Assembly (NCBI GenBank): GCA_041640595.1
Contig: JBEPZY010000003.1
Span: forward strand, 116,773-180,772
Direction: 5' to 3'
Length of the DNA stretch: 64,000 nt
Source: Gemmatales bacterium
GTDB lineage: Bacteria; Planctomycetota; Planctomycetia; Gemmatales; HRBIN36
A program made the translations under genes and the position numbers. Below are positions 25,186 through 57,068 of this stretch, one piece after another (the stretch's first letter is position 1; every line of letters starts with the position of its first letter). Below the pieces are notes generated by a model, which worked only from the letters and a program-made list of their open reading frames with translations, was not told the origin of the DNA and searched no databases.

Positions 25186-25214
25186 TTGATTTGGACGAAG
25201 CTGGATTGTACAAT
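25186..25214 (+). promoter_or_regulatory. Sigma70-type promoter of the fluoride riboswitch operon
   Basis: TTGATT-17 bp-TACAAT, ending 7 nt before the riboswitch. Confidence 0.65.
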
Positions 25215-25221
25215 CTAACGC

Positions 25222-25285
25222 GGCGATGGGGTTCGCCGTGAACCGCAGCGGTTCCCTTGCGGAACCGTTGCTGATGACCCCTACC
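25222..25285 (+). ncRNA. Fluoride riboswitch (crcB motif)
   Basis: GGCGATGGGGTTCGCC...AACCGC...GCTGATGACCCCTAC matches the consensus, including GGGGT/ACCCC pseudoknot complementarity. Confidence 0.92.
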
Positions 25286-25330
25286 TTGCTGGGTTCTCCC
25301 CGGAAGGTGGGGGTCGCATCGGCGAATGGT

Positions 25331-29727: not shown

Positions 29728-29871
29728 TCGTACAGACCTCGACACTGTGCGCGTTGGATGCTGCAGGGGTGCTATATTGGTCTAAGCTGCGTCTTCGTAC
29801 AAACTGTCTTCCGGTTGTTGCGCATAGTCCAGCAAGATAGGTATTGGTCTAAGCTGTGTCTTCGTACAAAC
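29728..29871. CRISPR. CRISPR-like mini-array A: 30-bp repeats, 37-bp spacers
   Basis: TATTGGTCTAAGCTG(C/T)GTCTTCGTACAAAC at 29775-29804 and 29842-29871; in-phase remnant TCGTACAGAC ending at 29737 (period 67). Confidence 0.65.
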
Positions 29872-30958: not shown

Positions 30959-31030
30959 TGGGCCCGGCAGGATTCGAACCTGCAACCGACGGATTATGAG
31001 TCCGCTGCTCTGCCGTTGAGCTACGGGCCC
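30959..31030 (-). tRNA. tRNA with CAU anticodon, most likely tRNA-Ile2 (lysidine-modified); CCA not encoded
   Basis: GGGCCCG acceptor stem, GCGGA-CTCATAA-TCCGT anticodon arm, GCAGG-TTCGAAT-CCTGC T arm; C4-G69/C5-G68 pairs favour Ile2 over Met. Confidence 0.93.
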
Positions 31031-31489: not shown

Positions 31490-34220
31490 GACACAGGCGG
31501 GCTGACGGTCGCTACTCTTGTTCGTCTGTTGCATGGTCGCCGAATAGTGCGCGGTTTTCGCCGGACAGCGTGCGGTTCACCGAGCCACGGCGGGCTGACG
31601 GTCGCCGCTCCTGGTGGCCGCGCGAAGATTCTCCGAACTGTGCCACGTCGCCGTTGCAAGTGCGTTTCCTGAACCCACGGGGGGCTTACGCCCCCCGCTC
31701 TTGTGTAGCAGTCGATCGCCGCGGGTGTGTGGGCGATTGCGGCTGCCGATGCGGTTCTGAGCCACGGCGGGCTGACGGTCGCCGCTCTTGGTGCCCGCGC
31801 GAAGATTCTCCGAACTGTGCCACGTCGCCGTTGCAAGTGCGGTTCCCGAACCCACGGGGGGCTGACGCCCGCCGCTCTTGTTTGGGCTGACGGTCGCCGC
31901 TCCTGTGAACATGCGTTTGTGCATCGCGGATGGGGCTATTCTCCGGCCGGGCGTAGCGTCGTGCGCCAAGAGCGGTCGGCGTGAGCCAACCGTCGGAAAC
32001 TTTCACGCTCGCACCGGCGTTGGTTAAACCACGGGGGGCTTACGCCCGCCAGCAGCCATCCGGCAACCTTTGCCACTAGCTGTAAGTGCGGTTCCTGAAC
32101 CCACGGGGGGCTTACGCTCGCCAGCAGCCATCCGGCAACCTTCGCCACTAGTCGCAAGTGCGTTTTCCGAACCCACACTTGGTTGCTCAGTCGGTCGGGT
32201 GTGTGAGCGATTGCGGCTGCCGATGCGGTTCTGAGCCACGGCGGGCTGACGCCCGCCGCTCCTGGTGCCCGCGCGAAGATTCTCCGAACTGTGCCACGTC
32301 GCCGTTGCAAGTGCTTTTCCCGAACCCACGGGGGGCTTACGCCCCCCGCTCTTGTTTGGGCTGACGCCCGCCGCTCTTGTGAATGGTCGTTTGTGCATCG
32401 CAGATGGCGCTATTCTCCGGCCGGGCGTAGCGTCGTGCGCCAAGAGCAGTCGGCGTGAGCCGACCGTCGGAAACGTTCACGCTCGCACCGGCGTTGGTTA
32501 AACCCCGGGGGGCTTACGCTCGCCAGCAGCCATCCGGCAACCTTCGCCACTAGTTGGAAGTGCGGTTCCTGAACCCACGGGGGCTGACGCCCGCCGCTCT
32601 TGTGTAGCAGTCGATCGTCGCGGGTGTGTGGGCGAATGCGGCTGCCGATGCGGTTCCGACCCACGGCGGGCTGACGGTCGCCGCTCTTGGTGCGTGTGCG
32701 ACTCCGGATTGGAAGACACGACTTCCCGGCGAACGAACGTCGTGCACCAGGAGCGGCTGGCGTAAGCCAGCCGTGGTTCCCCAAACGCAACTGCATAGCA
32801 TTCACGGTACACTACGGAGACCCGTGCACCTACCAACCCACGGCGGGCTGAGGGTCGCCGCTCCTGGTGGCCGCGCGAAGATTCTCCGAACTGTGCCACG
32901 TCGCCGTTGCAAGTGCGTTTCCTGAACTCACGGGGGGCTTACGCCCCCCGCTCTTGTCTAGCAGTCGGTCGTCGCGGGTATGTGGGCGATTGCGGTTGCC
33001 GATGCGGTTCTGACCCACGGCGGGCTGACGGTCGCTACTCTTGTTCGTCCGTTGCAAGGTCGCCGAATAGTGCGCGGTTTTCGCCGGGCAGCGTGCGGTT
33101 TACCGAACCACGGCGGGCTGACGGTCGCCGCTCCTGTGAACGTGCGTTCGGATCTCGGAAAAACCGTCATTTCCTCGGCGATCGAACACGGTGCAACCAG
33201 GAGCGGCTGGCGTAAGCCAGCCGTGGTTCCCGAAACGCAACTGCATAGCATTCACGGTACACTACAGAGAACCCTCCACCTACCAACCCACGGAGGGCTT
33301 ACGCTCGCCAGAAGCCATCCGGCAACCTTCGCCACTGGCTGTAAGTGCGTTTCCCGAAACCACGGGGGGCTTACGCCCCCCGCTCTTGTCTAGCCAGTCG
33401 GTCGTTGCGGGTGTGTGGGCTATTGCGGTTCCCGATGCGGTTCTGAGCCACGACGGGCTGACGGTCACCGCCTTGTTCGTCCGTTGCAGGGTCGCCGAAT
33501 AGTGCGCGGTTTTCTCCGGACAGCGTGCGGTTCACCGAACCACGGCGGGCTGACGCCCGCCGCTCTTGGTGCCCGCGCGAAGATTCTCCGAACTGTGCCA
33601 CGTCGCCGTTGCAAGTGCGGTTCCTGAACCCACGGGGGGCTTACGTCCCCCGCTCTTGTGTAGCAGTCGAACGCCGCGGGGGTGTGGGCGATTGCGGTTG
33701 CCGATGCGGTTGTGAGCTACGGGTGGCTTACGCCCCCCGCCCTAGTTTGGACTGACGCCCGCCGCTCTTGGTACGGGTTCGACCCCGCATTGTAAGAAAT
33801 GATTTCCCGGCGAACGAGCGTCGTGCAGCAGGAGCGGCTGGCGTAAGCCAGCCGTGGTTCCCGAAACGCAACTGCAAGTGATTTACGGCACGCCATGCAG
33901 AACGTTCTACCGATCGAACCCACGGCGGGCTGACGCACGCCAGCAGCCATCCGGCAACCTTCGCCGCTAGCTGTAAGTGCGCTTCCTGAACCCACGGGGG
34001 GCTTACGCCCCCCGCTCTTGTTTGGGCTGACGGTCGTCGCGGGTATGTGGGCGATTGCGGTTGCCGATGCGGTTCTGAGCCACGGCGGGCTGACGCCCGC
34101 CGCTCTTGTTTAAGCTGACGGTCGTCGCTCCTGGTAATGACGTTCTACGCTCTCGAGGAAGTCGTCTCCTGTTGCAAGGCGTCGCTGAAACACGCATGCC
34201 CGGCTGAGGGTCGCCGCTGT
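31490..34220. repeat. REP/BIME-like mosaic repeat cluster (roughly 35-40 hairpin cores)
   Basis: Core CCACGGCGGGCTGACG(G/C)(T/C)CGCCGCTC and CCACGGGGGGCTTACGCCCCCCGCTC repeated, inverted copies near 31967, 32441, 32748, 33198, 33828, with a small set of recurring linkers. Confidence 0.88.
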
Positions 34221-34320: not shown

Positions 34321-34933
34321 GGTTTTGCAAGGTGGGTTCATGCGCTGGCACTGCGCATTGTCGCCCAGCACACCGCCAGGACACTAGGTTTTGCAAGGTG
34401 GGTTCATGCGCTGGCACTGCGTATCGTCGCCCAGCACACCGCCAGGGCGCCAGGTTTTGCACGGTGGGTTCATGCGCTGGCACTGCGTATCGTCGCCCAG
34501 CACACCGCCAGGGCGCCAGGGTTTGCACAGCGGGTTCATGCGCCGGTATCGCGTATCGTCGCACAGCACACCGCCAGGGCGCCGGGTTTTGGACGGTGGG
34601 TTCATGCGGTGGCACTGCGTATCGTCGCCCAGCACACCGCCAGGGCGCCAGGTTTTGCACGGCGGGTTCATGCGCCGGTATCGCGTATCGTCGCACTGCA
34701 CACCGCCAGGGCGCCAGGGTTTGCACAGCGGGTTCATGCGCTGGCATCGCGTATCGTCGCCCAGCACACCGCCAGGGCGCCAGGGTTTGCACAGCGGGTT
34801 CATGCGCCGGTATCGCGTATCGTCGCACTGCACACCGTCGGGGCGCCAGGTTTTGCACGGCGGGTTTATGCGCTGGCACTGCGCATTGTCGCACAGCACA
34901 CCGCCAGGGCGCCAGGTTTTGCACGGCGGGTTA
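34321..34933. repeat. 66-bp tandem repeat, nine full copies plus a partial
   Basis: Unit GGTTTTGCACGGTGGGTTCATGCGCTGGCACTGCGTATCGTCGCCCAGCACACCGCCAGGGCGCCA starting at 34321, 34387, 34453 ... 34915. Confidence 0.95.
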
Positions 34934-46862: not shown

Positions 46863-46958
46863 GGACGGCAGCCGAAGGTGAAACAGGCACGCGACAAGAC
46901 AAGCGGAGCAAAGACAAGCGTCCTGAAGAAGGACGGCCGCCGAAGGTGAAACAGGCAC
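46863..46958. repeat. 28-bp direct repeat pair with 40-bp spacer
   Basis: GGACGGC(A/C)GCCGAAGGTGAAACAGGCAC at 46863-46890 and 46931-46958. Confidence 0.7.
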
Positions 46959-49668: not shown

Positions 49669-49856
49669 AGTTTAGTCCCTCCAAACTACCAGCATAAGCG
49701 CAAGCGACCGGTACGCCAAGACGATTAGCGCTTTGCGTCCTCAGCTGCCAGTTCTCGCCTGCCTCAGTCTTCGCTAAGCTAGCTTCCCTGCCGATAAGAT
49801 TGTGTGGACTGCCAGATTTTCCTTTTGCAGTGGAATCGGGCTTCAGGAGTTGCGTC

Positions 49857-52800
49857 GTGAATGCCGAACACTGGGTCGAACAGGGCCGGAAACATCACAC
49901 CGCCGGCCGCTGGCGAGATGCCGAAATTTGCTACCGACAGGCTCTCGCTCTGGATCCTCGCCATGTCGAGGCGCTGCACTTGCTTGGTTTGCTTGCCCAT
50001 CAAGCCGGCCACTCGGAGGACGCTATCCAGTTGATTCGCCAGGCTCTCGATATTCAGCCCCATTACGCCATCGCCTGGAACAACCTGGCTACTATCTACC
50101 ACGACCGGCAGCAACTTCGTTTCGCTCACGAATGTCTCGAACGGGCATTGCAACTCCAACCCGACTACGCTACCGCGCATAACAACCTGGGGGAGATCTA
50201 TAAAGCACTTGGTCACGTTCGCAAAGCCCTGGATTGTTATCGCCGCGCTCTGGCCTGCGATCCTAATTTCTTAGCAGCTCGCAGTAACTATCTCATGACG
50301 CTTCTTTATGATCCTGACCAGGAGCTAAGTTCCTTTCTCGAGGAAGTGCAGCGCTGGGGAAACTATCCTGTCCCGCGCCATTTAGCCAGCCAAAAAAGAT
50401 GGTCGCTAAATACAAATCCCCACCGCCGCCTGCGAATCGGTTATGTCTCACCGGATTTCCGTAAGCATGCCGTCATGCGGTTCTTCCTCCCTATCTTAGA
50501 AGCGCACGATCCGGATCAGGTCGAGGTTTACCTCTATGCCCAGATTCCAGCCGCGGATGCCGTTTCTGAACGCTTGCGAAAGTTAGCTTCCGGCTGGCGT
50601 GTGATTTCGCTGCTCTCGGCAGCAGAAGTGGCCCGCCTTATTCAGCAAGACCATATAGACATCCTCGTGGACTTAGCCGGCCACACTCGCCGTAACCGCC
50701 TGGATGTTTTTGCCCTGCAACCAGCACCTGTACAGTGTACCTATTTAGGATACCCAGGACCAACAGGACTTCCCACTATCCGTTTCCGTTTCGGAGACGC
50801 TTATCTTTTTCCTGACGCTGCTCCCACCTGGCACACCGAGGAAATTGTGCGACTAAACAGCGGCTTCTTCGCATTTGCTCCACCGGATAACGCTCCCGAA
50901 GTAAGTTCGCTTCCGTGTCTGGACAACGGATATATAACTTTCGGCTCGCACCACCCACTAATCAAGCTAAACGATCGTGTGCTGAGGCTATATAAGCAAG
51001 TCCTTGATGCCGTCCCCCACTCTAAACTTCTTTTCTTCCGCGATCAGTTGCGCGACTGGGCGCTGGAAGATTTCCAGAAGCGGCTGGCAGCGATCGGGCT
51101 TTCACCAGACCGACTTATCATTGCTTCGCCAACCGCTGAGGAAATTGACTACCTCCGTACCTATCACCGTGTGGATATCGTATTAGATGCGTTTCCGTTT
51201 ACCGGGCACACGATGACCTGCGAGTCGCTGTGGATGGGCGTGCCTGTGCTGACCTTGTCGGGAGATCGGCCCTGGTCGCGTCTTTCCCGGAGTGTGCTGG
51301 AACGGCTTGGTTTGCAGGAATGGATTACCTATACGCCTGATGAGTTTGTTGAGCGGGCTCGAGAGCTGGCAGCACAATCAGAGCGACTCGCCTCCCTCCG
51401 TGCGCGATTGCGTTCGCTCATTCTGCAACGCCTTACTAATGGCAGCACGGTGGCACGTGATTTAGAGGATGCTTATCGCAGGTTATGGCAGGAGTGGTGT
51501 GCTCAGCACGAACCTCGGGCCACACAAACAATAAGCGTTCCTTCGCAGGAAACACCTGACGCGACAACCGTGGTTACGCCCGAACCTGAAAACGTGACTA
51601 ATGTTGTTGTCTCGGATATACCGAACACAGCTGAGACCTGGCATGAACGCGGCCTGGCACTCGCGGAGGAAAAAAAGTTTTCTGAAGCGATCGAATGTTT
51701 CCGCCAGGCACTATCACTGCGCCCTAACTATCTTATTGCTGAGCTCAATCTGGGCATGTGTTATAAGAATCTCGGCTACCTGGATGAGGCAGCTCGCATA
51801 TTCAGGAATTGCATAGACAAGTACCCAGGCGATCCCGCTCCTCTTATTCAGCTGGCCGCGACTTATAAACAGCTCAACCGACTGGACGACGGTTTGACAT
51901 GCTTACGTCAAGCCTGTCGAATCAGTCCGCCATTCGGTCCCGCCTGGCACAATTATCTTGTCTATCTGAACTATCATCCCAGGAGCAAACCGGAAGAGAT
52001 TTACCAGGCTCACCGGCAATGGGGCGAGCGAGCCGCTGTACCATTAGTTCGCAAATTCACTAATGCCCTCGACCCGGAACGCCCCTTGCGCATCGGTTAT
52101 GTTTCCCCGGATTTATACGAACATCCGGTCAGTCGCTTCATCGAACCGATACTGCGGCACCACAACAAGGCAGAGTTTGCCGTCTATGTTTATGCAGGGG
52201 TGCGCCGACCAGACCGGGTAACTCGTCGCTTGCAGGAATTAGCTGATTGCTGGAGAGATATTGTCCGCTTAAGTACCGAGCAAATAGCTGATCAGATTCG
52301 TGCAGATCGCATTGACATTCTCGTGGACCTGACCGGTCATTATGCGGACAATTATTTAGCGGTGTTTGCGCAACAACCGGCCCCGGTTCAGGTGACCTGG
52401 TTAGGATATCCCCATACCACAGGGCTGAGCACGATTCATTATCGGTTGACCGATCGAGTCTTAAATCCCCACGAAGAGCCGCCATACGCAACAGAACGTC
52501 TGGTGTACTTAGAGGGCGGTTTTTCATGTTTTCAACCACCCCAGCCGGCCCCGGAAATTAGTCCCCCGCCGTGTTTAGAAACAGGTATGATCACGTTCGG
52601 CTCGCATCACGATCTTAAGAAACTAAACGATGACGTTTACTGGGTCTGGAGCAAAATTCTCAAACGAGTGCCGAATTCCCGATTATTGTTTTTCCGAAGC
52701 TCGCATATGCCCCCAATTCAGGATCACCTGCGACGTAAATTTCGAGCTTACGGCATCGAACCGGAACGGATTGTCGTTCGTCAGCCTCCTTTTGGCGACT

Positions 52801-55211
52801 TAGTTTACCTGCCGACGTTCTCGGAGGTGGATATCATCCTGGATACGTTTCCTTTCGGCGGGCACACCATGACCTGCGAGGCTTTGTGGATGGGCGTGCC
52901 TCTGGTTACTTATTACGGGAAATGGCCATGTGGTCGGCTCTCGGCCAGCGTATTGACCAGCATTGGAGCGACCGATTGGATCGCGCGAAGTTTCGAGCAA
53001 TATATAGATATTGCTTGCTCACTAGCAGGTAACCCGCAAGAGCTGGCAAAACACAGACGGCAATTAAGACAGCGTGTGGAGCAGGCCTTATGCAACGGGG
53101 AAAAGTTTGTGCGGCAGCTGGAAGAGATTTATCGCCGCATGTGGCGGGAATATTGTCGGACACAGGGACTGCGCATTTCGGCAGATCAAGGGATTCGCCC
53201 ATTTCTGCACCCGCAACAGATTCAAGAGAACCGCGAAACCTTCGCTAGCTTAGATCGTGTATTAGCTGAAGCTGAGCAATTCCTCCAGCAAGGGCGATAC
53301 GCAGACGCGGAAGCTGCTTATCGGCGAATTCTGAATAGCGAACCCCGTTGCCCATCTGCCTGGCGCGGTTTAGGCCATCTCGCCGCGTTAGCCGGTCATC
53401 TTCAAGGTGCGGCGGAATGCTTAGCCCGGGCCATTCAGGGTGCTGTGGATAATCCGTTTTTCGCGGCCCAGTGTCATTTCGAACTGGCGCAACTTTATCG
53501 CCGGGCTGGACGACTTCCCGAAGCACTCGAACATGTCCGTCAGGCACTCGCACTCAGCCCTAATCAACCCCCGTTGCTTCGCTTTCTAGGCTCGGTCTGT
53601 TTTGATTTAGGGCTCTCTGCCCAGGCGGTGGAAGCTTATCGCGCTTATTTAGAACAACGCCCACACGATGCCGAAACGTGGAATGATCTGGGCAACGCAT
53701 TTCGACAGATGGAGCGCAATGAGGAGGCCATCGCGGCTTATCGTCGAGCCTTGGATATTAAACCTAATCTGAGCCCGGCTCTGGCGAACATTGCCAACCT
53801 GCTTGCCGAAGAGGGCCACACCGAGGAAGCACGGGAACATTATCGTCGCGCTTATGTGCATCAGCCACTGAACCGCCTGCGTTTCTTATCCGAGACCACG
53901 TTGCCGGTGATCTATACTTCAATGGAACACCTGTATGAAACGCGAGCCGCCCTGGAAAAATCTATCCGCCAGCTTATCGAGGAACGTGTATTTATAGACC
54001 CCACGCAAGAGCTGTTTCCGACTCACTTTTACCTTGCCTATCAGGGGATGAATGACCGTGAGCTGCACCAGCTAATCGCGCGTTTAGGAAATGGCCCACG
54101 AAAATTACAACTGCCGGAACCCCATCGGCCAGGACGAAACAGGAAAATCAAGATCGGCTTTTTGTCGCGTTACTTGCAAACGCACACCATCGGGCAGCTC
54201 AATATAGGTCTTATCAGCCACCTCGATCGCAGTCGCTTCGATGTGTATGTGCTATCGTTGTCTCCGCCGGATAAATATCTTGGCCAGCGGTTCCGCGAGG
54301 TAGCGGATTATTATTTAGTGCTGCCGCCGCAAATTCCGTCTGCATTGCAACAGCTAGTGCAGCTAGGGCTGGATATCCTTTATTATCCCGATATCGGCAT
54401 GGATGCGATGAGCTACACGCTGGCGTTCAGCCGACTTGCTCCGGTGCAGTGTTGCAGTTGGGGACATCCGGTGACGACGGGTTTGCCGACCATGGATTAC
54501 TTTGTTTCCAGCGCTACTGCGGAGACTGCTGAAGCGGATGATCATTACAGCGAAAAGTTGTTGCGCCTGAGCCGGCTAAACGTCGTGTATGAGAGACCGA
54601 AGCTCGTGGGCCGGCAACCTGACCGCCAGGAATTTGGTTTACCCCAGCACGGGCACATTTACCTGTGCCCGCAAACGCTGTTCAAGTTCCATCCGGAGTT
54701 CGACAACCTCCTGGCGGAAATTTTGCGACGTGATCCGGCCGGCTGGCTGGTGTTGATTGAGGGCAAGTTCAAAAACTGGACGGAGCTGCTGCTGGCGCGA
54801 TTTCGCCGAACTATGCCGGACGTGGTGGAGCGTGTGCATTTTGTCTCCAAGCTCCCGCGGGACGATTTCCTTCGCCTGCTGACACTGGCCGACGTGATGA
54901 TTGACCCAATTCATTTCGGCGGTGGCAACACCAGCTACGAGGCTCTGGCGCTGGCGGTGCCGATCGTCACCTGGCCTTCACCATTTCTGCGATGTCGGCT
55001 CACTCTGGCCATGTACCGGCAGATGGATTTCATGGATTTGGTGGCGACCAGCGCAGCGGAGTATGTAGAAAAAGCGGTACGGATCGCGACGGATGCGGAA
55101 TATCGGGAGCATGTTCGTCAGGCTATCCGCGAACGAGCCGATGTCCTTTACGACGACCGTGCCGTGGTTCGTGAACTGGAAGGCTATTTCGAACAGTGGG
55201 TACGCGGCTGA
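49857..55211 (+). CDS. TPR protein with three tandem GT41 (SPINDLY/OGT-like) glycosyltransferase modules
   Basis: Three TPR+catalytic units: RLRIGYVSPDF..WMGVPV, PLRIGYVSPDL..WMGVPL, KIKIGFLS..WGHPVTTG..GGNTSYEAL; GTG start with AGGAG RBS. Confidence 0.9.
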   Translation: MNAEHWVEQGRKHHTAGRWRDAEICYRQALALDPRHVEALHLLGLLAHQAGHSEDAIQLIRQALDIQPHYAIAWNNLATIYHDRQQLRFAHECLERALQLQPDYATAHNNLGEIYKALGHVRKALDCYRRALACDPNFLAARSNYLMTLLYDPDQELSSFLEEVQRWGNYPVPRHLASQKRWSLNTNPHRRLRIGYVSPDFRKHAVMRFFLPILEAHDPDQVEVYLYAQIPAADAVSERLRKLASGWRVISLLSAAEVARLIQQDHIDILVDLAGHTRRNRLDVFALQPAPVQCTYLGYPGPTGLPTIRFRFGDAYLFPDAAPTWHTEEIVRLNSGFFAFAPPDNAPEVSSLPCLDNGYITFGSHHPLIKLNDRVLRLYKQVLDAVPHSKLLFFRDQLRDWALEDFQKRLAAIGLSPDRLIIASPTAEEIDYLRTYHRVDIVLDAFPFTGHTMTCESLWMGVPVLTLSGDRPWSRLSRSVLERLGLQEWITYTPDEFVERARELAAQSERLASLRARLRSLILQRLTNGSTVARDLEDAYRRLWQEWCAQHEPRATQTISVPSQETPDATTVVTPEPENVTNVVVSDIPNTAETWHERGLALAEEKKFSEAIECFRQALSLRPNYLIAELNLGMCYKNLGYLDEAARIFRNCIDKYPGDPAPLIQLAATYKQLNRLDDGLTCLRQACRISPPFGPAWHNYLVYLNYHPRSKPEEIYQAHRQWGERAAVPLVRKFTNALDPERPLRIGYVSPDLYEHPVSRFIEPILRHHNKAEFAVYVYAGVRRPDRVTRRLQELADCWRDIVRLSTEQIADQIRADRIDILVDLTGHYADNYLAVFAQQPAPVQVTWLGYPHTTGLSTIHYRLTDRVLNPHEEPPYATERLVYLEGGFSCFQPPQPAPEISPPPCLETGMITFGSHHDLKKLNDDVYWVWSKILKRVPNSRLLFFRSSHMPPIQDHLRRKFRAYGIEPERIVVRQPPFGDLVYLPTFSEVDIILDTFPFGGHTMTCEALWMGVPLVTYYGKWPCGRLSASVLTSIGATDWIARSFEQYIDIACSLAGNPQELAKHRRQLRQRVEQALCNGEKFVRQLEEIYRRMWREYCRTQGLRISADQGIRPFLHPQQIQENRETFASLDRVLAEAEQFLQQGRYADAEAAYRRILNSEPRCPSAWRGLGHLAALAGHLQGAAECLARAIQGAVDNPFFAAQCHFELAQLYRRAGRLPEALEHVRQALALSPNQPPLLRFLGSVCFDLGLSAQAVEAYRAYLEQRPHDAETWNDLGNAFRQMERNEEAIAAYRRALDIKPNLSPALANIANLLAEEGHTEEAREHYRRAYVHQPLNRLRFLSETTLPVIYTSMEHLYETRAALEKSIRQLIEERVFIDPTQELFPTHFYLAYQGMNDRELHQLIARLGNGPRKLQLPEPHRPGRNRKIKIGFLSRYLQTHTIGQLNIGLISHLDRSRFDVYVLSLSPPDKYLGQRFREVADYYLVLPPQIPSALQQLVQLGLDILYYPDIGMDAMSYTLAFSRLAPVQCCSWGHPVTTGLPTMDYFVSSATAETAEADDHYSEKLLRLSRLNVVYERPKLVGRQPDRQEFGLPQHGHIYLCPQTLFKFHPEFDNLLAEILRRDPAGWLVLIEGKFKNWTELLLARFRRTMPDVVERVHFVSKLPRDDFLRLLTLADVMIDPIHFGGGNTSYEALALAVPIVTWPSPFLRCRLTLAMYRQMDFMDLVATSAAEYVEKAVRIATDAEYREHVRQAIRERADVLYDDRAVVRELEGYFEQWVRG

Positions 55212-55427
55212 ACTTGCTTGGAGCAGCGTATTTTAGGTACGAACGAAGGCCCGCCGAGTGCTCAGGTACGCGGCTAAACTGGCTTAGAGAAACCCCGAGT
55301 GGTTTGGGAGATGCGCCTGTGCACATGGCTGCGCACGCAGTAAAGCTTGCTTCGAGCAACGGCGGAGGCTTCGTTGGGACTAAGCTCGTCTGCCGCCAAG
55401 TGTACAGCCAATTTTGCTTCGAGCAAC
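55199..55427. CRISPR. Degenerate CRISPR-like array F: four ~29-bp repeats, 37-38 bp spacers
   Basis: Copies at 55199-55227, 55265-55293, 55332-55360, 55399-55427 (period 66/67/67), consensus GGTACGCGGCTAAACTTGCTTCGAGCAAC. Confidence 0.62.
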
Positions 55428-55972
55428 GCCCGGAAATTGTGCAACGTTGCCAGCGGTTGTGGCAAGCAGAAACCGCCTGTCCATTGTTAGCGACTGGGTG
55501 ATTTGGTGGAAGAAGCAGGACTGGAGAATGTAACGTAATAAGCAGGAAAGCCGAAGTGTTCTATCTTCGTCGTGGAAGAGGCAATTTTCGAAGGATTTAC
55601 GGCGGCTCGGTCTTGAGGAAGGCTGCAATGTCAGGCATTCCCTAGCGACCAGGGGTCGGGCTCGCGCATACGGCCAAACACGCTTACAGCGCGAATAATA
55701 CAGCTTTTGGCCTGCCAAATCTTATGTTTGCCGCGGGTCAGGCACTCGTGCATGGTGAGAGACTTGTTTGCGCAGACGGAGGGAAAATTGACGAGACCCA
55801 GCGGAGCTTAGCCGTGTCAGGTTCGAAGAATTGGCGTGTGTAGGCAACATGGCTGAAAGAAAGGATATAGGAAAGTGCCATTTCATCGAACGCGGCCAGA
55901 AATTTTGTTGAAGGCAGAGTTCGGCACGATAAGTGCGACTTGCTTAGAATGCGACTTGGGGAGGTTACGGCC

Positions 55973-56224
55973 ATGTGGAGTGCAACGGAAGCAGCGACGG
56001 TGTATGCTTTTCCAGAAGTCAGCGAAGAGGAATTGGAGGCATTGCAAACGCGCCTGCAGGCTTTGCTGGGCCATGCTGTGCGGGAGTTGCGTCTCAGCTG
56101 GGAAGGAAACGGGGTTGTGCTGCAAGGAAGGGCGAAACGCTTTTACGCCAAGCAATTGGCCCAAACGATGTTACAACGACTGTGCGAACATCCCATTCTG
56201 GCGAACCGCATCGAGGTGGATTAG
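55973..56224 (+). CDS. Small BON-domain-like protein
   Basis: VVLQGRAKRFYAKQLAQ..LANRIEV pattern; GGAGG RBS. Confidence 0.7.
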   Translation: MWSATEAATVYAFPEVSEEELEALQTRLQALLGHAVRELRLSWEGNGVVLQGRAKRFYAKQLAQTMLQRLCEHPILANRIEVD

Positions 56225-56225
56225 C

Positions 56226-57068
56226 TTACGCGGTTTGGCAAAATTCTCGTATGAGCGTGCTGAACTCGCTCTCTTTCTCAAACATGGGAAGGTGCCCGCA
56301 TTCGGGGAGAATTTCGACCCGGGCTTGCGGCAAATGTCGAGCGAAAAGCTGAGCGTAAACCGGCGGGATGAGTCGATCATCTGCCCCCCAGAGGATCAGA
56401 ACGGGACAGCGAATCCGGTGCAATCGTGCGGCTAGTTTCGGGTTATACGGGCGTTCCCACACCAGGCGTGCCAAAGTCCGCAGAGCACGGTAGGCGGCGA
56501 TAAGTGTCTCTTCGTTTACCTCTTTCAGGTCGCGCAGGATGAGCCTGGCCATGGGGCCGTCCGGATCGTGGAAAAGAAGCTGGCGAAGTTTCGGCGTGTC
56601 CTGCACATAGCGAAACAGGTCAGCGTAAGGATGCTCGTCCAGCCACAATCCTGGCGAGTCAGCAAACCAGAGCCGGCGAACACGTTCGGGCCAGCGCAGG
56701 GCAAATTCGATAGCGATCCAGCCACCAAGACTGACGCCGCCGAGATTGATTTCGCGCAGTCCAAGCTGGTCGAACAGTTCCGCGTAGTGCAGGGCAAAAT
56801 CCTCGATGCAATCCATGCCGTCCAGGCCAGTGCTTTCCGCGAACCCTGGATGAGCCGGGGCGTAAACGTGAAACTCGCGAGCCCAGTTATCGAGAAAAGG
56901 CAGCCAGGTAGTTTCGCCGAGGGCACTGTGAAGGTAAACCAGCGGGGGCCCGGTTCCGCCATGCCACAACTGCACCTGTCGGCCGGGAAGCTCGACCATT
57001 TCTTTTTTGCCACGGCGTGACAGTAAGACGCGGGCTCCGTAAGCCAGTTGCTGGAGTTTGTCGAACAT
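56226..57068 (-). CDS. Alpha/beta hydrolase
   Basis: GVSLGG nucleophile elbow, WGADD, CGHLP. Confidence 0.9.
   Translation of the reverse strand: MFDKLQQLAYGARVLLSRRGKKEMVELPGRQVQLWHGGTGPPLVYLHSALGETTWLPFLDNWAREFHVYAPAHPGFAESTGLDGMDCIEDFALHYAELFDQLGLREINLGGVSLGGWIAIEFALRWPERVRRLWFADSPGLWLDEHPYADLFRYVQDTPKLRQLLFHDPDGPMARLILRDLKEVNEETLIAAYRALRTLARLVWERPYNPKLAARLHRIRCPVLILWGADDRLIPPVYAQLFARHLPQARVEILPECGHLPMFEKESEFSTLIREFCQTA

Follow-up and report, generated by a model that had tools for sequence, protein, structure and literature searches.

Why does a long glycosyltransferase gene of a Gemmatales bacterium end inside the first of a row of degenerate, regularly spaced repeats? The window analysed here is a stretch of 64,000 nt of contig JBEPZY010000003.1 (assembly GCA_041640595.1), and it contains both the GT41 gene and the array that overlaps its end (Table 1). 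The initial annotation offered two explanations, a native gene end that was used as an integration target and repeatedly expanded, or an array that is co-transcribed as a 3' UTR source of guides. Our results favor the former, which fits the geometry of the array, its second copy, the related genomes and the PAM-flanked viral inserts described below. Most likely, the bacterium's own spacer-inserting enzymes once placed three spacers in the gene's end rather than in a CRISPR array, and the array seen here is the old scar of those insertions. In the terms of earlier work, it is very probably a fossil product of off-target CRISPR adaptation, a 'neo-CRISPR' mini-array.

Table 1. The GT41 gene and the repeats and spacers at its 3' end (positions in the window).
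Feature	Position	Strand	Remarks
GT41/TPR glycosyltransferase gene	49800-55211	+	1803 aa; PF13844 (E 4.5e-112) and many TPR families (Pfam)
Repeat copy 1	55199-55228	+	gene-proximal ('leader-side') copy; Trp (part)-Val-Arg-Gly-stop codons and 17 nt downstream
Spacer 1	55229-55264	+	36 nt; viral match in register 55230-55265
Repeat copy 2	55265-55294	+	Val-Arg-Gly-stop (GTA CGC GGC TAA) in the register of copy 1, which it matches at 24/30 positions
Spacer 2	55295-55331	+	37 nt; no supported source match
Repeat copy 3	55332-55361	+	
Spacer 3	55362-55398	+	37 nt; no supported source match
Repeat copy 4	55399-55428	+	distal, most diverged

The four degenerate repeats are 30 nt long and start 66, 67 and 67 nt apart. 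The chained-window periodicity score of the array is 55, compared with 36.3 +/- 1.7 (maximum 43) in 300 dinucleotide-preserving shuffles, which places it about 11 standard deviations above them. The coordinates and this test bear out the four copies every 66-67 bp that had been reported. Pairwise, the copies are identical at 24, 21, 19, 20, 18 and 21 of 30 positions (60-80%). Identity to copy 1 declines along the array (24 > 21 > 19 of 30), in agreement with the progressive divergence noted earlier. Averaged over columns, pairwise identity is 0.68 for the repeats and 0.31 for the spacers. No pair of spacers resembled each other above chance (every p > 0.13 by local alignment with 1000 shuffles), so that the description of the spacers as unrelated stands; their alignment with each other had been named as the sign of a decayed VNTR. 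Two details of the initial annotation had to be changed. With a 30-nt repeat the spacers measure 36, 37 and 37 nt instead of 37-38 bp, and the possible fifth copy ending at 55494 is not supported, since one period further on no stretch agrees with the consensus at more than 13 of 30 positions, against a null mean of 12.8. The repeat has no second site in the genome by blastn-short, and a whole-genome search for the repeat pattern with up to three mismatches returned one unrelated three-mismatch site only. When the array was read as coding sequence, Pfam matches had E values of at least 0.069, below the cut-offs. An intrinsic terminator or REP-like hairpin was also considered and rejected, since 55000-56100 contains no terminator-like site and the four copies fold no better than their shuffles (z-scores +0.15 to +0.82).

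The stop codon of the GT41 gene (TGA, 55209-55211) and its last four codons lie within copy 1, which confirms the reported overlap. The direction implied by the claim that the first repeat supplies the stop codon does not hold, because the gene end gave rise to the repeat. Copy 2 keeps Val-Arg-Gly-stop in register, and the gene's own end was therefore duplicated. Orthologues of GT41 end at the same Trp followed by 2-5 residues; their C-terminal tails, each up to the stop, read WVRG, WLQ, WLA, WLE and WVEERR. The in-register copy 2, together with the unit size of the resident CRISPR system, the relatives that lack the array and the viral inserts, argues that the gene end supplied the repeat and not the reverse.

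A comparison with orthologues lacking the array had been proposed as a check, and five such relatives were found, comprising three genomes of the same genus and two metagenome contigs (79% amino acid identity). All five keep the GT41 gene, the small gene downstream and its promoter-like motif, and their periodicity scores at the site are 38-41, against 55 here. No exact 'empty site' allele was found among them. The nearest relatives share 72% DNA and 79% amino acid identity, and at this distance a single-copy pre-integration block is unrecognisable base for base. Within the species, four other strains have this array, likewise of four units, and no unit was gained or lost. The four runs contained no joints indicative of unit-number variation and no intermediate alleles. 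A contig of run X6 covers 54800-55695 in full and differs by 23 substitutions and one gap. In strains X3 and X5, the stop codon TGA has become TAA, the stop of copy 2, through 55210 G>A; a second change, 55215 T>G, likewise makes copy 1 more like copy 2. The change 55286 A>C, found in all four runs of other strains, brings copy 2 nearer to copies 3 and 4, which have C at this position. Strain SNPs occur in repeats and spacers alike.

The duplicated block, although the duplication is now degenerate, has the length of the resident type I-B repeat (30 nt). Canonical type I-B array A (contigs C8 and C10) consists of 344 such repeats, and its spacers measure 36 nt (165 spacers), 37 nt (108), 35 nt (36) and 38 nt (26). 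The inserts of 36, 37 and 37 nt at GT41 fall on the peak of this distribution. The genome also encodes an adaptation module: type I-B cas1, cas4, cas3, cas5 and cas7 and a type III-B cmr module adjoin array A. The type I-B cas1 (TIGR03641, 425 bits) and cas4 adjoin a 317-repeat array, and an RT-linked cas1 adjoins a 247-repeat array. Block length, insert length and the resident module are what would be expected of a neo-CRISPR locus. Measured against a canonical CRISPR, the GT41 array has the regular spacing and the unique spacers of similar length, but its copies (18-24 of 30 identical) are far from the near-identical repeats of 23-50 nt, and it has neither a leader or cas gene nearby nor a shared repeat. 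Cas1 genes lie on contigs C8 and C1 only.

In sequence, the copies match canonical repeat A at 12-16 of 30 positions (ungapped, shifts allowed), which is not significant; the best of them is within the top 6.5% of random 30-mers. This lack of significant similarity speaks against the scar reading. Similarity to repeat A is weak among the blocks of the genome-wide class described below (Mann-Whitney p = 0.024 gapped, 0.096 ungapped). The heptamer TGG/GTAC is found both at the junction of GT41 and copy 1 and at the canonical type I-B leader-repeat junction; this match is only anecdotal, because a 7-mer such as TGGGTAC is expected hundreds of times in 4.4 Mb.

The GT41 array is not alone in its geometry. 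About 170 other loci in the genome share it, each with its own repeat sequence. Outside the canonical arrays, near-exact direct-repeat pairs number 94 at offsets 65-68 and 163 at offsets 72-76, compared with a mean of 1.8 at each control offset (50-63 and 78-86). Block lengths top out near 30 nt in the 65-68 class and near 37 nt in the 72-76 class. The distribution over offsets 65-68 (11/44/27/12) corresponds to 30 nt plus the canonical spacer length, from which it does not differ (chi-square p = 0.47). A period-unbiased genome scan gave a similar result: at scores of 50 or more, 30 loci have periods of 64-68 and 33 have periods of 72-77, one locus falls in the 14 periods 50-63, and there are nearly none at 78-86. 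Relatives serve as weak controls for these scars, since scar density is patchy even in the present genome (G000), where 6 of 27 130-kb windows are empty and 60% of 20-kb pieces contain no scar; the probability that 11 random 20-kb pieces of G000 are all empty is 0.005. With this restriction, 480 kb of the congener G002, which has only an RT-type Cas1, contained one scar (d = 76, 36-nt block, 37+39 geometry) and no pair at 65-68, and 680 kb of G027, which has no Cas1 and a GC content of 70-72%, contained no pair at 64-68 and one coding-like pair at offset 72. The window also harbors a whole-unit tandem array at 34321-34932 (66 nt x 9.3 copies, 89% matches), which as a 660-nt query has a weak viral match (24/26, E 7.7e-4); no claim is drawn from it.

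The inserts of the 66-67 class are in part of viral origin. At E <= 1e-4, 8 of 75 match a single virus family, compared with 0 of 127 in the 72-76 class (Fisher p = 2.8e-4). Canonical A spacers hit this family too (121 of 341), whereas B spacers do not (0 of 244). Protospacers of the canonical spacers carry a 5' CCN PAM (n = 103), and CCN lies directly upstream for three of the eight virus-matching scar inserts, and for a fourth after a 3-nt shift of the boundary. At the GT41 array, spacer 1 (register 55230-55265) matches a viral contig at 25 of 36 positions ungapped, and CCA precedes the match. The orientation is the one predicted if the gene end is the leader side; the best score in reverse orientation is 20. 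With the PAM required, a match of 25/36 was reached by none of 400 shuffles (maximum 22) and none of 1500 random genomic 36-mers (maximum 24), a p-value that is to be multiplied by about 6, because register 55230 was picked over 55229 after the PAM had been seen and three spacers were tried. No closer viral variant of this protospacer came up in a search, which returned the same contig only, and neither a virus nor any other source could be supported for spacers 2 and 3. In BLAST against phage and plasmid collections, the array (55195-55470) had no match at E <= 1. Among the canonical spacers of this genome, the only match to the array spacers was one of 13 nt to spacer 1, which is at chance level, as its E of 0.005 per query was obtained among 205 queries.

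We propose the following origin. The type I-B Cas1-Cas2(-Cas4) complex would have placed a prespacer at the 3' end of GT41 and not at the leader-repeat junction of its own array. Strand transfer would have cut at two points 30 bp apart, so that gap repair duplicated the 30-bp target on either side of a 36-37-bp insert. The duplicated target would comprise the last four codons, the stop codon and 17 bp downstream. Since the upstream copy would have retained the reading frame and the stop, the GT41 gene would have been left undamaged. The same site was presumably re-used twice, the gene-proximal copy being the most likely target, which would have left four repeats with three unrelated spacers. 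Declining identity to copy 1 (24 > 21 > 19) is what would be expected if units were added at this copy. The array would then have drifted by point mutation, and it would now be fixed in the species. Fresh integration gives exact duplicates and the copies are only 60-80% alike, and a long decay must therefore be assumed. The uneven divergence of copies 3 and 4, with their 3' 15 nt exactly alike and only 6 of 15 positions shared in the 5' half, counts against neutral decay. The identity of the acting enzyme and the order of the three events are best regarded as probable reconstructions.

Going one step further, the locus may be a naturally born CRISPR array that has passed through three rounds of growth, in which a gene end mimicking the TGG/GTAC leader-repeat junction was adopted, the type I-B integrase re-used the site with its normal polarity and loaded it with PAM-selected viral spacers, and read-through transcription from GT41 may for a time have given usable guides. 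Taken as a whole, this extended reading is unlikely. Other origins have to be weighed against the proposed one. A decayed minisatellite (VNTR), in which slippage or unequal recombination multiplied a 66-67-bp unit before its spacer part diverged and its repeat part was kept, could be imagined in a genome that has whole-unit tandem arrays of equal unit length, such as that at 34321-34932. However, spacer similarity does not exceed chance (p > 0.13), in contrast to the 60-80% identity of the repeats, and the period varies (66, 67, 67). The minisatellite reading leaves unexplained why only 30 nt, with no fold or motif beyond shuffles, should be conserved, and slippage cannot produce viral inserts with a PAM at the level of the class. 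We consider it quite improbable. Bacterial intergenic minisatellites do resemble the array, being non-coding and built head to tail from units some tens of bases long, but their units are alike throughout, whereas here the resemblance is confined to 30 of 66-67 nt. The weakness of the repeats, which Tandem Repeats Finder leaves unreported even at a minimum score of 30, might suggest a chance periodicity of intergenic sequence. Chance periodicity is counted as refuted, with practically no probability left to it, by the score of 55 against 36.3 +/- 1.7 and by the genome-wide clustering at 64-68 and 72-77.

The remaining two explanations take the array to be a genuine CRISPR or a working element. 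A remnant of a true CRISPR array with another repeat family could have recombined onto the gene end, the repeat replacing the C-terminus and supplying the stop. The orthologue tails differ, which makes a replaced tail compatible with the sequence, and the repeats begin with GTAC and copy 2 ends in GAAAC plus one base, like many CRISPR repeats. Against this, the genome holds no further copy of the repeat, the paired-core pattern had no match in a search of about 185,000 species, each represented by a single genome, and cas genes and a leader are missing nearby. Moreover, some 170 loci of the same geometry with a repeat of their own each fit target duplication better than many lost families. We judge such a remnant very improbable, and we give just as little credence to a working element, be it a 3' UTR array that yields guide-like RNAs or a set of palindromic protein-binding sites that regulate neighboring genes. 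The array does lie in sense orientation directly behind a long gene, read-through into it is plausible since no terminator-like site was found, and its four units recur in four other strains. Parts of it are covered by contigs from an RNA library (run X5), but such contigs show neither transcription nor RNA ends or processing. On the other side, the copies are degenerate, and only half of them, copies 3 and 4, have the palindrome TTGCT-N3-AGCAA intact. Folding does not exceed that of shuffles, Rfam gave no match to the array at E <= 1, and the canonical 3' repeat end ATTGAAAC is absent. The array is also missing in all five relatives that have both flanking genes, and strain SNPs fall in its repeats as well as its spacers. 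The guide-source half of the initial annotation is therefore unsupported. There is no sign of any present function, and the array probably has none.

Off-target spacer integration by Cas1-Cas2 has been described as the formation of neo-CRISPR loci (Nivala, Shipman and Church 2018, Nat Microbiol 3:310; via PMC6698737, bioRxiv 10.1101/148544 and PMC7054753). In the portions of these sources available to us, the work concerns E. coli type I-E with over-produced Cas1-Cas2 (bioRxiv 10.1101/148544, PMC7054753), and the evidence for natural events, from two other species, is called 'circumstantial' (bioRxiv 10.1101/148544). As far as those portions go, the GT41 locus resembles these loci in that a spacer-sized insert lies between direct duplications of a repeat-length non-CRISPR target, and in that the site is re-used and a small array grows. 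It differs from them in belonging to a native type I-B system (30 + 36/37) of a hot-spring planctomycete. In further contrast to that work, as excerpted, the array is old, degenerate and fixed, overlaps a stop codon and belongs to a set of about 170 loci in one genome. For Cas1-Cas2 of Pyrococcus furiosus, another system with 30-bp repeats, the repeat sequences and their relative spacing are reported to set the two integration sites, and off-target integration products occur in vitro (PMC6698737). That study, in the part available, is biochemical and uses minimal CRISPR substrates, with no natural genomic scars. Compared with the bacterium's own canonical type I-B array, the GT41 array shares the 30-nt repeat, the 36-37-nt spacers and the leader-side TGG/GTAC; the match of spacer 1, in a register picked after the PAM had been seen, is to the heavily targeted virus family next to CCN. 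It is unlike that array in its unrelated repeat, its degenerate copies, its lack of a leader or cas gene nearby and its missing 3' end.

Read as an off-target scar, the locus provides a natural multi-spacer example from a native type I-B system, where the cases known from the source excerpts are over-production in E. coli and circumstantial natural evidence. It would indicate that an ectopic site can be used repeatedly, that a hit in the last 30 bp of a gene can be tolerated because the duplication regenerates the gene's end, and that off-target arrays persist long enough to be fixed and to decay. It also carries a warning for annotation, as degenerate 'mini-CRISPRs' with odd repeats need not belong to some unknown system. 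Together with the genome-wide class and its viral inserts, the array offers a substrate for testing how new CRISPR arrays originate and at what cost to the genome adaptation comes. If the reading as a naturally born array were true, the roughly 170 loci of this genome would be a natural record of the de novo origin of CRISPR arrays.

The initial annotation described repeats recurring every 66-67 bp from the end of the GT41/TPR gene, the first overlapping the final codons and TGA of that gene, and both observations were borne out: the stop codon (55209-55211) lies inside copy 1, and the spacing is as listed in the Table. The periodicity is significant, since chained 24-nt windows over three steps scored 55 versus 36.3 +/- 1.7 (maximum 43) in 300 dinucleotide-preserving shuffles. 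Identity between copies, out of 30 positions, is 20 for copies 2 and 3, 18 for 2 and 4, and 21 for 3 and 4; identity to copy 1 falls from 24 through 21 to 19 in copies 2 to 4, a weak hint, from only 30 sites, that units were added at the gene-proximal copy. The spacers measure 36, 37 and 37 nt rather than the proposed 37-38 bp. They are unrelated, as claimed: a decayed VNTR would have spacers that align with each other, and mutual alignment of the three spacers and the 37 nt past copy 4 gave nothing above shuffles (six pairs, all p > 0.13). The suggested fifth copy ending at 55494 did not hold up, because the position one period past copy 4 scores 13/30, close to the null mean (12.8). Directly downstream of the array, a 12-nt pair (11/12; 55506-55517 and 55572-55583) lies exactly 66 nt apart; it could reflect chance or another scar in a later stage of decay.

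Copy 1 reads in frame (T)GG GTA CGC GGC TGA, and copy 2 in the same register reads (C)AG GTA CGC GGC TAA, a second Val-Arg-Gly-stop. The repeated unit is therefore the native gene end plus 17 nt downstream, and with the upstream copy in place the protein is unaltered. Folding of the copies was not better than that of shuffles, no terminator-like sites were found in 55000-56100, Pfam and Rfam searches of the array gave no fitting family, and the repeat was not found elsewhere in the 4.45-Mb genome. Nothing points to a present function of the array.

Features of the window (G000:C3:116773-180772) and canonical CRISPR arrays of the source genome, G000
Feature	Location	Strand	Details
Fluoride riboswitch	25213-25290		46.7 bits
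tRNA gene	30959-31030
GT41/TPR gene	49800-55211	+	ORF, 1803 aa; PF13844 E 4.5e-112, many TPR matches
Repeat copies 1-4	starts 55199, 55265, 55332, 55399		~30 nt; spacing 66, 67, 67
Downstream small gene	55975-56352		125 aa, no Pfam family
CRISPR array A	C8:1-21080 and C10:65236-66999		317 + 27 repeats, 30 nt each
CRISPR array B	C1		247 repeats, 37 nt each; spacers mostly 36-38 nt

Orthologues lacking the array were examined in three genomes of the same genus, in which the last ~870 nt of the gene are 72% identical at the DNA level, and in two contigs from metagenomes, at 79% amino acid identity. All five keep the GT41 gene, which ends in the same Trp plus 2-5 residues, and the downstream small gene with a conserved promoter-like motif, GGCAC-N5/6-TGC (window ~55920-55945), which we take to resemble a sigma-54 -24/-12 promoter. 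Behind the gene, none shows a periodicity of 55-85 nt (scores of 38-41 versus 55 here). The intergenic region spans roughly 365-590 bp in these relatives versus about 760 bp here, and no base-exact empty site was found among them. In one metagenome contig (L015) the orthologue ends WVEERR-TGA; the other (L014) has TTA at that codon, and its frame stays open for some 20 codons more.

Across the array, contigs from four public runs (four studies) align mostly at 95-99% identity and without a joint, so the array is fixed with four units; a 4239-nt contig covers 54800-55695, differing by 23 substitutions and a single gap. Three strain differences raise the likeness of the copies. In two runs 55210 G>A (making the stop TAA) and 55215 T>G bring copy 1 nearer copy 2, and in all four 55286 A>C brings copy 2 nearer copies 3 and 4, which fits one ancestral repeat sequence followed by drift.

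Canonical array A adjoins type I-B cas1 (TIGR03641, 425 bits), cas4, cas3, cas5 and cas7 and a type III-B cmr1-6 module; array B adjoins a stand-alone reverse transcriptase (RT) and cas1. Spacers of array A are chiefly 36 nt (165) or 37 nt (108), then 35 (36) and 38 (26). In repeat and spacer length the array under study thus matches the unit of array A exactly. When array A is oriented so that its repeat ends ATTGAAAC, the leader ends TGG and the repeat begins GTAC; the gene end has the same TGG|GTAC where copy 1 starts, a single 7-mer and thus anecdotal. Overall, the four copies do not resemble repeat A significantly. Elsewhere, a 4.7-kb contig (C20:1215-1590) carries a third CRISPR-like array, six copies of a different 30-nt repeat at a spacing of 67-70, which may derive from another replicon or a contaminant. 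At C3:328836-328932, distant from cas genes, two repeat copies lie 37 nt apart, each 4-5 positions off canonical repeat A.

The array is not alone in its geometry. A period-unbiased genome scan (periods 30-160, four chained copies per locus, canonical arrays excluded) returned 200 loci, of which 30 fall in a peak at periods 64-68 and 33 in another at 72-77; the 14 periods 50-63 together held one. In most such loci repeat columns have 0.5-0.8 identity and spacer columns 0.21-0.35, which is chance. Offsets 65-68 held 94 near-exact direct-repeat pairs (blocks of at least 20 nt) from 77 loci, and offsets 72-76 held 163 from 96 loci, versus a mean of 1.8 per control offset, and block lengths top out near 30 and 37 nt, respectively. 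Many are clean 30 + 36 + 30 scars with a sequence particular to each, and the distribution over offsets 65-68 (11/44/27/12) agrees with 30 nt plus a canonical spacer length (chi-square p = 0.47). Rough gene prediction, with a coding fraction of 0.84, places 38 of the 63 loci in the 66-67 class between genes and 8 of the 63 across a stop codon, as with the array under study. A genome without Cas1 (G027) has no pairs at offsets 64-68 in 680 kb, and in a congener with only an RT-type Cas1 (G002), 480 kb yielded a single scar, of its own geometry; both are thin controls because scars are patchy in the source genome.

Two clean scars also lie in the window, at 29775-29871 (30-nt block + 37 nt) and 46863-46958 (28-nt block + 40 nt), the second block carrying one mismatch in each. 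At 34321-34932, 66-nt tandem units (x 9.3, 89% matches) are conserved over the whole unit, which is as long as the type I-B CRISPR unit and in one part weakly matches the targeted virus (24/26, E 7.7e-4). This tandem array may be an amplified scar and, with all frames open, may also be coding. A third genome-wide peak (periods 87-95) consists of 88-93-nt repeats around a GC-rich hairpin (GGGCTGACGCCCGCC core), found at 31570-32380 and many other sites; these look like REP or MITE elements, unrelated to CRISPR unit lengths.

Some inserts of the 66-67 class match a virus family. All spacers were compared at E <= 1e-4 with a 92-kb set of related viral loci from one IMG/VR family, L171-L183, which was matched by 121/341 spacers of array A and 0/244 of array B, and by 8/75 inserts of the 66-67 class versus 0/127 of the 72-76 class (Fisher p = 2.8e-4). 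The insert at C2:174386 matches a canonical A spacer at 30/31, and the protospacer of that spacer is on IMG/VR contigs. The 103 canonical protospacers with long matches have a 5' CCN PAM (C at -3 in 94, at -2 in 90). Of the eight inserts, three have CCG or CCA immediately upstream, one more has CCT once its boundary is moved by 3 nt, and the rest are shifted or unclear. The 66-67 class is thus tied, by its viral matches and upstream CCN, to type I-B adaptation and the PAM selection of that machinery.

However, the repeats under study are far from identical for an integration scar, copies 3 and 4 are alike only in their 3' halves, and for two of the three spacers, 2 and 3, searches gave no supported match. 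Spacer 1 (register 55230-55265, repeat starting GTAC) aligns ungapped at 25/36 to a 34-kb viral contig with CCA upstream, in a register picked after the PAM was seen and among three spacers tried; with a PAM required, 25 was reached by 0/400 shuffles (maximum 22) and 0/1500 random genomic 36-mers (maximum 24). After correction, this match is moderate evidence for a viral origin of spacer 1. Its orientation (the reverse reached at best 20) agrees with the gene end as the leader side.

Among known phenomena, the nearest is off-target integration yielding neo-CRISPR loci (Nivala et al. 2018). Citing papers describe it in E. coli over-producing Cas1-Cas2, with events elsewhere in the genome being rarer (PMC6698737, bioRxiv 10.1101/148544, PMC7054753), and give "circumstantial evidence" for two other species (bioRxiv 10.1101/148544). 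By this route, a type I-B integrase would have attacked the gene end, cutting 30 bp apart, and repair would have left a copy of the 30-bp target on either side of a 36-37-nt prespacer. Three such events in total would have hit the site, with drift later degrading the repeats. Off-target type I-B integration is the most likely origin of the array.
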